Shown here: in pieces, positions 1 through 4,116 of the stretch | Position numbering within the stretch: the stretch's first letter is position 1 | How the letters are laid out: each line of letters opens with the position of its first letter | Origin: a virus | Taxonomy: Duplodnaviria; Heunggongvirae; Uroviricota; Caudoviricetes | Length of the DNA stretch: 4,116 nucleotides | IMG/VR virus record: IMGVR_UViG_2534681992_000021 | Location: 1-4,116 of that record | Direction: 5' to 3' (one strand) | Position numbers and translations under genes: made by a program | The notes under the pieces: model-generated | Database searches by the model: none | The model's input: the letters and a program-made list of their open reading frames with translations, nothing else | Told to the model about the DNA's origin: nothing

Positions 1-1
1 C

Positions 2-298
2 GGAAAGGGGGAGGTTTCCACCGCCTGTACAGATTGTCGTGGGCGCGGTGTTGCCATTCATCGTGAAGAGTCGGAAAAACAGGGTGTGCCGGTTTTCAGA
101 AACTGCCAGCGTTGTGGTGGGCGTGGCTATGAAAGATTACCTTCAACGGAGGCATTTAATGCCATATGTAATGTAACCGATGCCATATCTCTTGATACAT
201 GGAAAAAAACAGTTAAACGTTTTTACGATACGCTGGTGGTGCAGTTTGATATTGAAGAAGCATGGGCAGAACAACAACTGAAAAAGGTGACCAGATAG
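2..298 (+). CDS. Q: Antitermination protein Q, lambda-type, C-terminal part (5'-truncated by window edge; stop TAG 296-298)
   Basis: Frame 2 is open from the window edge to TAG at 296-298; the ORF track's 86..298 is the M-initiated subset of this frame. The translation contains CTDC-(22 aa)-CQRC, the same CxxC-22-CxxC spacing I recall for the lambda Q zinc-binding cysteines, followed by 60 residues to the stop, consistent with a 207-aa lambda-like Q. A pR'/qut-like sequence follows immediately downstream. Not verified by alignment. Confidence 0.8.
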   Translation, partial: GKGEVSTACTDCRGRGVAIHREESEKQGVPVFRNCQRCGGRGYERLPSTEAFNAICNVTDAISLDTWKKTVKRFYDTLVVQFDIEEAWAEQQLKKVTR

Positions 299-303
299 CT
301 TTG

Positions 304-331
304 TTGATTTTTCCCGAATCTGTGGTAAATT
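304..331 (+). promoter_or_regulatory. pR'-like late promoter: -35 TTGATT (304-309), 16-bp spacer, extended -10 TGgTAAATT (323-331)
   Basis: Hexamers and spacing read directly. GTGGTAAATTTGCCCTAACGATGGG (322-346) closely resembles the lambda pR' -10/initial transcribed region as I recall it (GGTAAATTTGACTCAACGATGGG). Position directly downstream of Q matches lambdoid late-promoter architecture. Confidence 0.6.
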
Positions 332-352
332 TGCCCTAACGATGGGCGTTTT
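332..352 (+). promoter_or_regulatory. qut-like / sigma70-dependent promoter-proximal pause element (AACGAT -10-like repeat in the initial transcribed region)
   Basis: AACGATGGG at 338-346 just downstream of the -10 mirrors the pause-inducing -10-like element of lambda pR' where Q loads onto RNA polymerase. Established knowledge of lambda Q/qut plus sequence resemblance; exact start site and pause position not determinable here. Confidence 0.4.
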
Positions 353-401
353 ATGCCTGACGTTAGAAGATTTTTACACCCGTCGCCAGGCGGGTTTTTT
401 T
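338..401 (+). ncRNA. Candidate short constitutive pR' transcript ending at the tR'-like terminator (analogue of lambda 6S RNA / StxS-type sRNA)
   Basis: Predicted start a few nt after the -10 (about 338) and an intrinsic terminator ending at 401 would give a roughly 60-nt RNA in the absence of Q. Coordinates are inferred, not measured. Confidence 0.35.
378..401 (+). terminator. Rho-independent terminator (tR'-like): stem 378-384/389-395, GCCA loop, U-tract 396-401
   Basis: ACCCGTC gcca GGCGGGT forms a 7-bp stem (one G.U pair) followed by TTTTTT, about 80 nt after the Q stop and downstream of the pR'-like promoter. Confidence 0.7.
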
Positions 402-522
402 ATGACTGAAATCACGCCAGTACAGTAAACGCGCTGGTGGTTGTGAATACCGGTCTTTCAGCTTGCTGGCTTTTTTGACAAGAGTTATTGGTATGTCACG
501 TTAACCAAAAGGGAAAAAAGAC

Positions 523-720
523 ATGCTAAAACAGCAGGATATGACAGAAACCGCCAGAGTGGTGTTTAATGAATTAAGCGTTACCGACCCGGCGACAGTC
601 GGGGAGATTGCGCAGAATACTTACCTTTCACGCGAACGCTGCCAGTTAATACTGACCCAGCTTGTTATGGCGGGTCTGGCAGACTATCAGTTCGGTTGTT
701 ACAGACGCCTTCCGCAGTGA
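523..720 (+). CDS. Hypothetical small protein (65 aa), winged-helix/HTH-like; possible PapI/FaeA-like regulator
   Basis: ATG at 523 with a purine-rich AAAAGGGAAAAAAG stretch upstream; ORF ends TGA 718-720. The segment TVGEIAQNTYLSRERCQLILTQLVMAGLA has helix-turn-helix character and loosely resembles the PapI/FaeA DNA-binding core (TAEIAEAL...LLLLEKAGMV) from memory. Family assignment is tentative; could also be an uncharacterised phage protein. Confidence 0.5.
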   Translation: MLKQQDMTETARVVFNELSVTDPATVGEIAQNTYLSRERCQLILTQLVMAGLADYQFGCYRRLPQ

Positions 721-734
721 AGGCTTTTTTATTT
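707..734 (+). terminator. Rho-independent terminator overlapping the stop codon of the 523-720 ORF
   Basis: GCCTTC (707-712) / GAAGGC (719-724) perfect 6-bp stem with 6-nt loop, followed by TTTTTTATTT (725-734). The TGA stop at 718-720 lies in the loop/3' arm. Confidence 0.65.
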
Positions 735-870
735 GTGGTAAATGGGCGGCTGGTGGGTGTTAGGGGCACCTACCAGCCATCTGCTCATGCGTTGGGTTCA
801 CAAGCAAACCTCAGGCCCACTGCTTTGCGCAAAAGCAGAATGAGCCTATCAGAGACAGGCTTAATGATCC

Positions 871-1947
871 ATGCTTAATACTGTAAAAATATCCAGTTGT
901 GAGTTAATCAACGCTGATTGCCTGGAATTTATCCAGACCTTACCGGAAAACTCTGTCGATCTGATAGTCACAGACCCGCCATACTTTAAAGTGAAGCCCG
1001 AGGGCTGGGATAACCAGTGGAAGGGCGACGATGATTACCTGAAGTGGCTGGACCAGTGTCTGGCGCAGTTCTGGCGGGTGCTGAAACCTGCCGGAAGTCT
1101 TTACCTGTTCTGTGGCCATCGCCTGGCATCTGACATTGAAATCATGATGCGTGAACGCTTCAATGTGCTGAACCATATTATCTGGGCGAAGCCGTCCGGA
1201 CGCTGGAACGGGTGCAACAAGGAAAGCCTGCGGGCGTATTTTCCGGCCACAGAACGCATTCTGTTCGCGGAACATTATCAGGGGCCGTATCGTCCGAAAG
1301 ATGATGGCGATGAGGCGAAGGGCAGGGCACTGAAACAGCATGTGATGGCCCCGCTGATTTCTTACTTTCGTGATGCGCGTGCTGCTCTTGGGATAACGGC
1401 AAAACAGATTGCAGATGCCACAGGAAAGAAAAACATGGTGTCGCACTGGTTCAGTGCCAGTCAGTGGCAGCTACCGAACGAAAGCGATTATCTGAAATTA
1501 CAGTCGCTGTTTGCCCGGGTGGCAGAAGAGAAACATCAGCGGGGAGAACTGGAAAAGTCCCATTACCAACTGGTCAGCACATACAGTGAGCTGAACCGGC
1601 AGTACATGGAACTGCTGAGTGAATATAAAAATTTGCGGCGGTATTTCGGTGTGACGGTGCAGGTGCCGTACACCGATGTGTGGACGCATAAACCGGTGCA
1701 GTACTATCCAGGGAAACATCCGTGCGAAAAACCGGCAGAAATGCTGCGGCAGATAATCTGCGCGAGCAGTCGTCCGGGTGACCTGGTGGCGGATTTTTTC
1801 ATGGGTTCTGGCTCAACCATAAAAGCAGCTATGGCGCTCGGGCGTCGTGCAACTGGTGTTGAACTGGAGGCAGAACGTTTTGCGCAGACCGTTAAGGAGA
1901 TTAGTCACATCCTTACATGCTCAATTGATGACGGGAAGGATGGATAA
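871..1947 (+). CDS. DNA methyltransferase, N6-adenine/N4-cytosine amino-MTase, beta-class motif order (358 aa), apparently orphan
   Basis: Complete ORF ATG 871 to TAA 1945-1947. Catalytic motif IV DPPY (VDLIVTDPPYF) near the N-terminus and SAM-binding motif I FxGxG (DFFMGSGST) near the C-terminus, which is the beta-class arrangement (PF01555-like). No restriction endonuclease candidate nearby. Target specificity cannot be read from the sequence. Confidence 0.9.
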   Translation: MLNTVKISSCELINADCLEFIQTLPENSVDLIVTDPPYFKVKPEGWDNQWKGDDDYLKWLDQCLAQFWRVLKPAGSLYLFCGHRLASDIEIMMRERFNVLNHIIWAKPSGRWNGCNKESLRAYFPATERILFAEHYQGPYRPKDDGDEAKGRALKQHVMAPLISYFRDARAALGITAKQIADATGKKNMVSHWFSASQWQLPNESDYLKLQSLFARVAEEKHQRGELEKSHYQLVSTYSELNRQYMELLSEYKNLRRYFGVTVQVPYTDVWTHKPVQYYPGKHPCEKPAEMLRQIICASSRPGDLVADFFMGSGSTIKAAMALGRRATGVELEAERFAQTVKEISHILTCSIDDGKDG

Positions 1948-2058
1948 AGATATGGTCAGTTCAGGCTGTGAAGCAAGTAGACAGATAAGGCTGCAATAAA
2001 AACTGACAATAGTAAAATAGCTTTTTCTCAGGTAGTCATGAATACGATCTCTTAAAGC

Positions 2059-2078
2059 GCCCGCTGATACCAGCGGGC
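2059..2078. other. Stable hairpin (8-bp GC-rich stem GCCCGCTG/CAGCGGGC, 4-nt loop) about 110 bp after the methyltransferase stop, no U-tract
   Basis: Perfect inverted repeat read directly; neither strand has a following T-run, so it is not a canonical intrinsic terminator. Could be an RNA 3'-end/processing structure or protein site. Confidence 0.4.
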
Positions 2079-2193
2079 AATACATACTGGCATTAATGTT
2101 AAGTTCAGGGATAATTCATCGTATTTTGTGGTACGACGCTATCAATATTAATAAACAGTATTTTTCATGTAAAATTTCTGTTTTTTTGATCTG

Positions 2194-2388
2194 ATTCTCG
2201 TTTCCTGGGTTATGATGTTGTTGTGAACCATGCTGTTGAATGATAATGTTCGGATATAAAATTGTTGCTGATATGTAGCGCAGTGAGCAGGTGGTATTTC
2301 TGTTGCTGAGTGTACGGATACAGTGCTTCCCTCCCTCAGCGGGGGGGGGCAGGTGTGCTGTGGTTTTAGAGACGCCGGAAACGAGAAT
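2194..2388. repeat. 12-bp perfect inverted repeat pair (ATTCTCGTTTCC 2194-2205 / GGAAACGAGAAT 2377-2388) bracketing a 171-bp segment
   Basis: Read directly. The bracketed segment contains the G9 tract and a 9-bp direct repeat TGTTGCTGA (2263-2271, 2301-2309). Confidence 0.5.
2341..2349. repeat. Homopolymeric G9 tract (C9 on minus strand) in non-coding DNA
   Basis: Nine consecutive G read directly at 2341-2349. Confidence 0.9.
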
Positions 2389-2719
2389 GATGCGGGTTTG
2401 CTGGTGCCGGGATAGAGTCGCCGGAGGTCATGACATAGAGCAAAAAAGGAATGTGCATGCAAATACACACCTCTTCGGAGAGCTCTTCTTTATATGGATG
2501 AGCCTCAAGGTCAATAGTTTATCTGTTATGTATTCATATGTTGTTACTTATATAATCCATACGGGCATATCATCAGTACACACATACTATTATGGCATTT
2601 TATTTTTGTTTTAACTGAATTCCCGGGGCACTCTTTTTGATTTCTGATAAGGAACCAGAATTTTCTGTTAAATGGTGTCACGTTGTAAATGGTTAATGGA
2701 AGCAGCTTATTATCCATAA

Positions 2720-2743
2720 TCACACCTGAGTTAACAGGTGTGA
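2720..2743. repeat. Perfect 9-bp inverted repeat TCACACCTG-agttaa-CAGGTGTGA (operator-like palindrome or RNA hairpin)
   Basis: Arms 2720-2728 and 2735-2743 are exact reverse complements with a 6-nt spacer; no flanking U-tract. Confidence 0.5.
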
Positions 2744-3020
2744 GAATACTTCCGGGTGGCAGGAACACATCTGACTGATACCAGATTATCAACTTTATTT
2801 TACACCATACAGTTGAAAACGTTATTCCGCTTGATGGGCATATCACTGTGTCAATAACTATCCATTCCATCTTTTAACCTTCTCGGTACACATTGCTTTC
2901 GATTGTTTTGCTAAAAATCATAGTCAATAAATCAGTGTAACTCATTGAAAAAGATCGTCTTCTTTGTCTTCCTGGGGTTTTCTTTTCTAATTTTGTATCA
3001 CTTTGGTTCAAGTTGTTTCA

Positions 3021-3109
3021 TTTTTTTGTAATACAAATTAGCAGGATGAGCGGGAATATAAAAAAATCGGATGTTTTTGTAATGGATATTATTTTTTTGT
3101 AAAATAATG
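3021..3109 (+). repeat. Three direct copies of TTTTTGTAA (3023-3031, 3074-3082, 3094-3102) in an A/T-rich block upstream of the esterase gene
   Basis: Read directly; each copy contains a -35-like TTGTAA. Confidence 0.5.
3077..3105 (+). promoter_or_regulatory. Candidate sigma70 promoter for the esterase gene: -35 TTGTAA (3077-3082), 17-bp spacer, -10 TAAAAT (3100-3105)
   Basis: Hexamers and spacing read directly; sits about 65 bp upstream of the ATG at 3172 in A/T-rich DNA. Sequence prediction only. Confidence 0.35.
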
Positions 3110-3171
3110 TATTTTTATTTAAATCTCTATCAGAAAAGAATTTATTGTTCCTTTATATGGTGGAAAAGGTC

Positions 3172-4116
3172 ATGGTATTTAAACACTACGATGTGGTCAG
3201 GGCGGCGTCGCCGTCAGATCTTGCGGAAAAGCTGACACAAAAACTGAAGGAGGGGGGGCAGCCATTTGGCAGCCCGGTGGCCATCACGCCTTATACTCTG
3301 ATGCAGGCCATTGCGGCGGAAGGTGATGTCACCACACCTGTGTTGGTGAAGCCGTCGGATGGAGAAGGCACAGTAATCAGCGCCACCAGAGACCCGGAGT
3401 ATTACTTTGTTGTGGTTCTGGCGGGGCAGTCAAACAGCATGGCATATGGTGAAGGCCTTCCGCTGCCGGAGACATATGACCGTCCGGACCCGCGTATTAA
3501 GCAGCTGGCGCGCCGCAGTACGGTGACACCGGGCGGTGCAGCATGCAAATATAACGACATCATTCCGGCGGACCATTGTCTGCATGATGTGCAGGACATG
3601 AGCCGCCTTAACCATCCGAAAGCGGACCTGTCAAAGGGGCAGTACGGAACCGTGGGGCAGGGGCTGCATATCGCCAAAAAACTGCTGCCGTTTATACCGG
3701 CGAATGCGGGCATTCTGCTGGTTCCGTGCTGTCGTGGTGGTTCAGCGTTCACCACCGGAGCTGATGGCACATACAGTGACGCGAGTGGTGCCTCGGAGAA
3801 TTCAACCCGCTGGGGTGTGGACAAGCCGCTGTATAAGGACCTTATCGGTCGAACAAAAGCAGCACTGAAGAAGAATCCGAAAAATGTGCTGTTTGCCGTG
3901 GTGTGGATGCAGGGGGAATTTGATTTTGGCGGTACGCCGGCAAATCACGCAGCACAGTTTGGTGCGCTGGTTGATAAATTCCGTGCAGACCTGGCGGATA
4001 TGGCAGGTCAGTGCGTCGGTGGCTCTGCTGGCGGTGTTCCCTGGATATGCGGGGACACGACGTATTTCTGGAAGCAGAAGAACGAATCCACGTACCAGAC
4101 GGTGTATGGCAGCTAT
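3172..4116 (+). CDS. nanS: Prophage sialate O-acetylesterase, NanS-p/YjhS family (N-terminal 315 codons; 3'-truncated by window edge)
   Basis: Frame open from ATG 3172 through the window end with no stop, which is why it is missing from the ORF track. Translation MVFKHYDVV...VVVLAGQSNSMAYGEGLPLPETYDRPDPRIKQLARRSTVTPGG...WICGDTT... carries the GQSN(S/M) catalytic-serine motif of the SASA/DUF303 esterase family and closely resembles E. coli NanS/YjhS and the nanS-p genes that lie downstream of stx in Stx prophages. GGTGGA 8 nt upstream of the ATG is a plausible ribosome-binding site. Confidence 0.9.
   Translation, partial: MVFKHYDVVRAASPSDLAEKLTQKLKEGGQPFGSPVAITPYTLMQAIAAEGDVTTPVLVKPSDGEGTVISATRDPEYYFVVVLAGQSNSMAYGEGLPLPETYDRPDPRIKQLARRSTVTPGGAACKYNDIIPADHCLHDVQDMSRLNHPKADLSKGQYGTVGQGLHIAKKLLPFIPANAGILLVPCCRGGSAFTTGADGTYSDASGASENSTRWGVDKPLYKDLIGRTKAALKKNPKNVLFAVVWMQGEFDFGGTPANHAAQFGALVDKFRADLADMAGQCVGGSAGGVPWICGDTTYFWKQKNESTYQTVYGSY

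Follow-up and report, generated by a model that had tools for sequence, protein, structure and literature searches.

The Q-to-nanS-p region of a lambdoid prophage from Escherichia coli 2013C-3264: a methyltransferase gene and an iraM-family gene at a known mosaic site

The stretch of viral DNA described here (4,116 nucleotides, positions 1 to 4,116 of the IMG/VR record IMGVR_UViG_2534681992_000021; hereafter the window) is very probably the late-regulatory and accessory-gene region of a lambdoid prophage without Shiga toxin (Stx) genes, and its architecture is that of a known subset of Stx2a phages. It leads from the 3' end of the antiterminator gene Q over the late promoter pR', a gene for a small winged helix-turn-helix (wHTH) protein, an orphan adenine methyltransferase gene and a slot of 1.2 kb with an iraM-family gene to the 5' part of the esterase gene nanS-p. 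Its full-length match lies at 5229976-5234090 of the chromosome of Escherichia coli 2013C-3264 (NZ_CP027544.1), the sole difference being one extra G of the window in the homopolymer at 2341-2349. Strain 2013C-3264 is a clinical STEC (E. coli that produces Shiga toxin) of serotype O103:H25 (PMC7285328). In RefSeq the genes of this locus are labelled antitermination protein, hypothetical protein of 65 amino acids (aa), DNA methyltransferase, iraM (on the minus strand) and DUF6645/SASA esterase, and in the wider prophage around the window DicB/DicF, HokD/Sok, RusA, holin, lysozyme, terminase and capsid genes are found.

The layout Q-methylase-stx-nanS-p has already been catalogued for Stx2a phages, including those with a 273-aa Q and 352-aa methylases (PMC10462455). 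For strain O157 Sakai, non-Stx prophages of the same organisation have been described in which small RNAs (sRNAs) are encoded in the interval from accessory gene to esterase gene (PMC4104026), and the sRNAs in the surroundings of the esterase gene have been mapped in a preprint of 2026 (bioRxiv 10.64898/2026.05.13.724894). Every gene of the window is annotated in RefSeq and the layout is published; the arrangement is real, ordinary and already known. The original prediction had set it apart from the layout of Stx-converting phages; by its own standard this is largely refuted, as the arrangement is annotated in RefSeq, recurs in 25-29 complete genomes and has its layout covered by two publications (PMC10462455, PMC4104026). 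Its flanks, however, are indeed Q and nanS-p.

The window was compared with the Stx2a phages EH1910 and EH2201. Their gene order is Q, the open reading frame (ORF) of 65 aa, the methylase, tRNA genes for Met, Arg and Arg, stx2AB, the sRNA gene STnc100 (154 bits), iraM on the minus strand and nanS-p. DNA identity between the window and these phages is about 92-94% in the wHTH ORF and methylase; over positions 2-1898 the window is 93.5% identical to EH1910, and the similarity to EH2201 runs from 374 to 1898. At 1898, still within the 3'-terminal part of the methylase gene, the similarity to the Stx2a phages stops, to return at about 72% in iraM and to become strong again at nanS-p. Compared with them the window is missing the three tRNA genes, stx2AB and an intact STnc100. 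ARAGORN detected no tRNA gene in the window and Rfam no tRNA match, and the absence of stx, which had been predicted, is confirmed since the window has no similarity to the stx2AB region of two Stx2a loci and contains no such ORF. The accompanying claim that a methyltransferase module sits here instead of stx has to be given up. Both the wHTH ORF and the methylase coexist with stx in EH1910 and EH2201, where they are located upstream of the tRNA genes and stx2AB, and judged from this synteny they are resident backbone genes and not a replacement of the toxin genes. In a further stx-less relative, OkiPb01693, only STnc100 is found between methylase and nanS-p. The Q-to-nanS-p slot is a known mosaic site that harbours several cargo combinations.

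Loss of stx from prophages is well known, and the locus might be regarded as a former Stx2a phage from which the tRNA-stx2AB segment was deleted. Such losses are also argued for in the recent preprint (bioRxiv 10.64898/2026.05.13.724894), and Q, pR', wHTH ORF and methylase resemble those of EH1910 to the extent given above, with iraM and nanS-p following downstream in both. Nevertheless there is no clean deletion junction, as the similarity ends at 1898 and comes back only at the low level mentioned for iraM (62% between the proteins), and no fragments of stx or tRNA genes are left in the window. Moreover, the cassette is much nearer to the non-stx, tRNA-bearing type represented by the prophage of STEC299 (NZ_CP022279.1), with 90% DNA identity over 367-2203 and 78% over 2470-3018. 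We therefore consider a deleted Stx2a phage quite unlikely and retain the reading of an accessory-gene region of a non-Stx lambdoid prophage.

The left border of the window is formed by the 3' end of the antiterminator gene Q (positions 1-298, plus strand, stop codon at 296-298), which matches PF03589 over 2-298 with an E-value of 1e-30. The full protein of 273 aa matches the solved structures of lambda Q (7UBM with E 5e-41, 4MO1 with E 8e-28); it is 32% identical to lambda Q and contains an insertion of 66 residues that is zinc-finger-like and CxxCxGxG-rich. On these matches its assignment as lambda-type antiterminator holds. Directly 3' of Q follows the predicted late promoter pR' with the Q-utilisation region (304-343, plus strand), which was located by alignment to lambda pR' and to EH1910. 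Its parts, with the hexamers assigned by eye, are a -35-like TTGATT (304-309), a TG-extended -10 element TAAATT (326-331) and a -10-like AACGAT (338-343), the last of which we take to be a pause element as in lambda. In the alignment the core GGTAAATTTG..AACGATGGG is invariant between the window and lambda pR', and the whole stretch from pR' to tR' is identical in the window and the Stx2a phage EH1910.

The -10 and -10-like elements are followed by the intrinsic terminator tR' (378-402, plus strand), which was found by a terminator scan, consists of a GC-rich stem of 7 bp and a run of seven T, and aligns with the end of lambda 6S RNA/tR'. The leader transcript ended there would be about 65 nt long. 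A weak Rfam match to suhB/mmgR at 326-410 (E 0.21) was discarded, as it merely reflects the tR' hairpin with its U-tail. The same scan revealed a second intrinsic terminator at 707-731 (plus strand), composed of GCCTTCCGCAGTGAAGGC and then TTTTTTATTT, which overlaps the stop codon of the wHTH ORF. As the plus-strand genes lie behind these two terminators, it is a reasonable inference that their expression would depend on Q upon induction. Concerning the mosaic structure, in most homologous loci the similarity to the window ends left of 374-393, i.e. at tR', so that another Q/pR' allele is present there. tR' acts as a mosaic junction, and among the complete E. coli genomes this Q and this cargo are joined in the source genome only.

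The methyltransferase gene (871-1947, plus strand) encodes a putative orphan β-class N6-adenine DNA methyltransferase of the M.EcoGII family with 358 aa. PF01555 (N6_N4_Mtase) matches residues 29-340 with an E-value of 5.6e-43, and in the translation the motif DPPY (34-37) stands ahead of FMGSGS (310-315), which is the motif order of the β-class. In the alignment with M.EcoGII 321 of 350 positions are identical (about 92%); the M.EcoGII sequence was a machine-read copy from Table S1 of PMC11551740, and misreadings could only lower this value. Identity to the methylase of phage 1720a-02 amounts to 91%, and this phage enzyme was described by Murray et al. as very similar to M.EcoGII (PMC5778455). 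M.EcoGII itself is a non-specific adenine methyltransferase from E. coli O104:H4 C227-11 that is not expressed in the lysogen (PMC5778455). By analogy, the enzyme encoded in the window most likely modifies adenines with little or no sequence specificity. No endonuclease gene adjoins it: the wHTH ORF is next to it on the upstream side, and on the downstream side the slot that contains iraM. Its length exceeds that of M.EcoGII and the Stx-phage enzymes (349-352 aa), and at the 3' end of the gene (1866-1947) the last approximately ten codons are unlike those of M.EcoGII and the Stx-phage methylases. The resulting tail ...EISHILTCSIDDGKDG is an allele shared with the STEC299 prophage, where the locus (2932-4754) contains a methylase pseudogene with an internal stop and an extra ORF of 237 aa between Q and the wHTH ORF.

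Between terminator tR' and the methyltransferase lies the gene of the 65-aa protein (523-720, plus strand; phrog_331, E 3e-37). With 333 homologues at ≥80% identity it is distributed across the Enterobacteriaceae, and the databases name this family TrmB-family or DprA-like winged helix. The Pfam TrmB match remains below the cut-off (17.3 vs 25.6 bits). A profile search of the PDB with the wHTH alignment gave weak matches only (E 0.1). As single-sequence AlphaFold reached a pLDDT (predicted local distance difference test) of only 56, an alignment-based AlphaFold (AF2) model was used instead. It has a pLDDT of 92.2, and its helices 9-16, 26-33 and 37-49 are followed by strands 53-56 and 59-62. 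In Foldseek this model matches the winged-helix domains of OhrR, MarR and IclR with TMq values of 0.75-0.81. According to the model the protein is a winged helix with H-H-H-β-β topology, and its DNA binding is putative. A relationship with lambda orf-64 was rejected, since the position is equivalent but there is no similarity.

Downstream of the methylase the slot 1948-3171 had been described as about 1.2 kb of ORF-free, AT-rich, non-coding DNA. None of these attributes applies to it as a whole. It holds three ORFs of 106-108 aa, and its GC content is 27-40% at 2001-2300 and 2501-3200 but about 53% at 2301-2500. Two of the ORFs, 2148-2468 on the minus and 2291-2614 on the plus strand, were rejected as genes, as both cross a G tract that varies among copies by non-multiples of three. 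The third, on the minus strand at 2544-2870, is an iraM-family gene, which is also its RefSeq label, and would encode an RssB anti-adaptor of 108 aa. Taking account of the plus strand only, the original prediction had overlooked it. The protein reaches 144.2 bits with NCBIfam NF007393 (cut-off 121) over residues 1-107, matches phrog_4407 with an E-value of 3e-55, and is 55% identical to K-12 IraM and 62% to the allele of the Stx2a phages. A Shine-Dalgarno-like GAGAAGG is located upstream of the ORF, and the ORF length is conserved across alleles. Compared with the STEC299 allele the ratio of nonsynonymous to synonymous substitutions (dN/dS) is 0.18 with dN 0.09, and by this sequence measure the gene is under purifying selection.

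It follows that the view of the 1.2 kb between methyltransferase and nanS-p as non-coding spacer or regulatory DNA, for which the low GC content outside of 2301-2500 and the absence of a plus-strand gene there would speak, is refuted by an intact ORF above the NCBIfam cut-off together with its dN/dS value, and it has next to no chance of being correct. By analogy with its family we infer that the 108-aa protein binds RssB and stabilises RpoS. The gene is oriented convergently with late transcription. Its promoter is presumed in the AT-rich intergenic region 2871-3171 (27-35% GC), where promoter-like sites at 3055-3105 occur on both strands no more often than by chance. K-12 iraM is activated by PhoP and silenced by H-NS. 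Upstream of iraM in the window no PhoP box was found at ≤2 mismatches; when three mismatches are allowed, the window and the K-12 iraM locus alike give as many matches as expected by chance, which means that this search has no discriminating power.

A segment of 266 bp (2204-2469), delimited by blastn breakpoints against STEC299, is lineage-restricted and stands where STEC299 has about 970 bp with three tRNA genes and most of STnc100. Within and beside it we read positions 2332-2495 (plus strand) as a decayed STnc100-like relic; it and the iraM-family gene are what the slot holds where non-coding DNA had been predicted. An nhmmer profile made from three genuine STnc100 copies gave a single match (E 0.005, 7.1 bits) that is syntenic, lies on the same strand and is collinear with positions 42-213 of the 215 of the profile. 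On inspection of the alignment the first hairpin (CCCTCCC/GGGGGGG) is kept, but the closing helix and two inner hairpins have disappeared, as has most of the stem of the terminator. The 3' arm of this sole surviving hairpin is the homopolymeric G tract at 2341-2349, which counts nine G in the window, eight in RefSeq and six, seven, eight, nine or eleven in homologous IMG/VR prophage copies. This variation may be due to slipped-strand events or to sequencing error.

With STnc100 (RF02076) there is no Rfam match over 1940-3175 even at E ≤ 10, the gathering score being 47 bits, whereas the genuine copies in three relatives reach 146-154 bits. The anti-sRNAs AgvB and AsxR (RF02702, RF02703) are likewise without a match, both in the window scanned at E ≤ 1 and in 1940-3175 scanned at E ≤ 10, and at the same thresholds no Esr41 and no tRNA were detected, only chance-level matches to a Trp leader, snoRNAs and a CRISPR repeat. 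Position and strand, which are those of STnc100 in three relatives, the collinear spacing, the retained first hairpin and G-tract lengths from 6 to 11 could also be reconciled with a functional but highly diverged STnc100/PasD-type sRNA or another regulatory element in 2204-2500 that is tuned by a phase-variable G tract. In favour of it, PasD and STnc100 are reportedly structural homologues with little sequence similarity, PasD being located directly upstream of the esterase gene (bioRxiv 10.64898/2026.05.13.724894), and convergent sRNAs are typical of the accessory-gene site behind pR' (PMC4104026). However, besides the lack of any Rfam match at E ≤ 10 in this segment, the fold energy of 2270-2500 is no better than that of shuffled sequences (z -0.11 and +0.64 on the two strands), the closing helix and three of the four inner STnc100 helices cannot form, and the terminator is cut to a stem of 4 bp. 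The segment is also the most variable part of the cassette (4.9% of sites, compared with 0% in iraM), and length differences in homopolymers may be sequencing errors. For these reasons a functional sRNA is unlikely, and the decayed relic remains our reading of 2332-2495.

Very unlikely in our estimation is a more far-reaching variant, in which 2204-2469 with its G tract, standing at the usual place of STnc100 and on the route of Q-antiterminated transcription, would not be decayed but a working RNA element subject to phase variation. It might be an sRNA of the STnc100/PasD type that was seeded anew, or a structure controlled by slippage that adjusts how far transcription reads into the prophage iraM or how strongly it interferes with this gene in antisense. 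Segment and iraM together would then be a mobile “RpoS-tuning” cassette that has recently spread among prophages of non-O157 STEC. Two other details of the slot deserve mention. About 110 bp past the methylase stop codon there is a GC-rich hairpin, GCCCGCTG-ATAC-CAGCGGGC (2058-2077), read from the sequence, with a perfect stem of 8 bp, which lacks a T-run on both strands; STEC299 has the identical hairpin, and Rfam returns only chance-level matches there. In NZ_CP027435.1 (strain 2014C-3599), around 1987525, the IS3-family insertion sequence IS600 splits the slot near window position 2487, a little upstream of iraM's 3' end.

Parts of the window are widespread, as 2822 of 5426 complete E. coli genomes match it somewhere, and 25 of them cover ≥80% of it. 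The slot segment 2183-2545 is much rarer and was found at ≥98% identity in 29 of these 5426 genomes, mostly STEC of the serotypes O111:H8, O121:H19 and O103 but also strains resembling enteropathogenic E. coli. Distant blastn did not find it in a phage collection of 50,697 records. Among the IMG/VR prophage contigs 16 contain an exact 25-mer from the segment 2204-2469; the GTDB representative genomes do not contain it. Among 15-16 of these IMG/VR copies, whose selection by an exact 25-mer inside the cassette biases the sample towards similar cassettes, identity over the cassette 1948-3171 lies at 98.4-100% and none of the 327 sites of iraM varies, in contrast with 12-36% variable sites in the flanking wHTH ORF, methyltransferase and nanS-p. 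That the cassette is nearly invariant and its flanks are mosaic may indicate that it has recently spread horizontally in the O103, O111 and O121 lineages. This pattern would fit a unit of 1.2 kb that is exchanged between prophage backbones when their conserved flanking genes recombine. In one IMG/VR prophage (IMGVR_UViG_2534681940_000022, 7271-7868) the similarity jumps from window position 555 to 1926; a deletion there removes most of the wHTH ORF and the methylase entirely, leaving the iraM cassette in place.

From these features the following course of events can be proposed. In the lysogen, transcription from pR' would end at tR' and any read-through would be halted at 707-731, so that the wHTH gene and the methyltransferase should be silent. 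Such silence would follow from the two terminators and would fit that reported for M.EcoGII in lysogens (PMC5778455). Upon induction Q would load on RNA polymerase at pR' and render it terminator-resistant, and a single late transcript would then cover the wHTH gene, methyltransferase, slot, nanS-p and lysis genes. Broad methylation of adenines could protect the progeny DNA from restriction in new hosts. For iraM, which has its own AT-rich upstream region of about 300 bp, expression in the lysogen without the need for Q is expected. Like IraM and IraL (PMC4045071), the encoded protein would bind RssB and thereby stabilise RpoS. Late transcription, being antisense to iraM, would oppose it.

Several points weigh against this picture in addition to the selection of the IMG/VR copies. 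In the host prophage the portal and DUF968 genes are frameshifted, a copy of ISEc20 is inserted and the repressor-like ORF is short; it is probably a defective, Qin-like prophage, and for these reasons induction, and with it Q-dependent transcription, may not occur. The strong late transcription of the original prediction would be reasonable behind two terminators but may not occur in a prophage that looks defective. Non-specific methylation is extrapolated from the identity of about 92% to M.EcoGII, and the two enzymes diverge in the 9-10 residues at the C-terminus. How the 108-aa protein acts and how it is regulated is uncertain as well, because its identity to K-12 IraM is only 55%, and IraL, which is 59% identical to IraM, binds RssB differently (PMC4045071). 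Elsewhere in the host prophage a DicF RNA (76.7 bits) is located beside dicB (prophage locus 1895-1946), and a hokD/sok module (119.8 bits) at 8981-9156.

The right border is the 5' part of nanS-p (3172-4116, plus strand, 315 codons), encoding a prophage sialate O-acetylesterase. It contains the domains DUF1737 (PF08410, E 6e-13) and SASA (PF03629, E 2e-12) and matches phrog_143 with an E-value of 4e-203. The gene starts at 3172 and not at 3171; in the source prophage it encodes 645 aa in full, and the C-terminal domain lies beyond the window. A run of seven G at 3253-3259 is part of codons 28-30 (KEGGQP), and a change of its length would frameshift the gene. With it, the gene identifications of the original prediction are borne out: a lambda-type Q with pR' and tR' on the left, a small wHTH ORF with a winged helix in the AF2 model and Foldseek comparison, an orphan β-class methyltransferase by PF01555, motif order and the lack of an adjoining endonuclease gene, and nanS-p with DUF1737 and SASA domains on the right. 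What is of wider interest is that a clinical STEC strain has a non-Stx prophage whose accessory-gene slot pairs a putative RpoS stabiliser of the iraM family with a probably non-specific adenine methyltransferase. This may be relevant for stress tolerance and for the escape of phages from restriction; otherwise it means little beyond a tidy annotation.

Among known systems M.EcoGII is the counterpart of the methyltransferase. Besides about 92% identity over 349 residues both share DPPY, a central helical recognition domain and FxGxG, both are prophage-borne and orphan, and silence in the lysogen, reported for M.EcoGII, is expected of the enzyme of the window. The protein of the window differs in being 9 residues longer and in its last approximately ten residues, and its activity is predicted from sequence. 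The 108-aa protein belongs with IraM (K-12, next to e14), IraL (CFT073) and RssC (Salmonella), with which it has in common equal length, conserved motifs, a score above the curated cut-off and a location in horizontally acquired DNA (PMC4045071). In contrast with them it represents a distinct prophage allele that sits in the Q-to-nanS-p slot antisense to late transcription. The loci of STnc100 and AsxR/AgvB likewise lie between accessory genes and nanS-p, and the window is weakly collinear with STnc100, but it fails all three covariance models and its helices are broken.

At the level of the whole region the window resembles the Stx2a phages of the O111 11128, 00-3076 and EH1910 type, which have a Q of 273 or 126 aa and a methylase of 352 aa (PMC10462455). 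It shares with the EH1910 type Q, pR'/tR', wHTH ORF and methylase and, further on, iraM on the minus strand, nanS-p, DUF1378, DUF826, holin and lysozyme. Apart from the lacking tRNA genes, stx2AB and intact STnc100, the two differ in the 3' end of the methylase and in the iraM allele (62%). The closest relative of the cassette is the non-Stx lambdoid prophage of STEC299. This prophage has a different Q, and in place of the 266-bp segment it carries tRNA genes for Thr, Arg and Gly and a genuine STnc100 (146 bits), but it shares with the window the C-terminal allele of the methylase, the next 250 bp including the hairpin at 2058-2077, a close iraM with its upstream region, and nanS-p.

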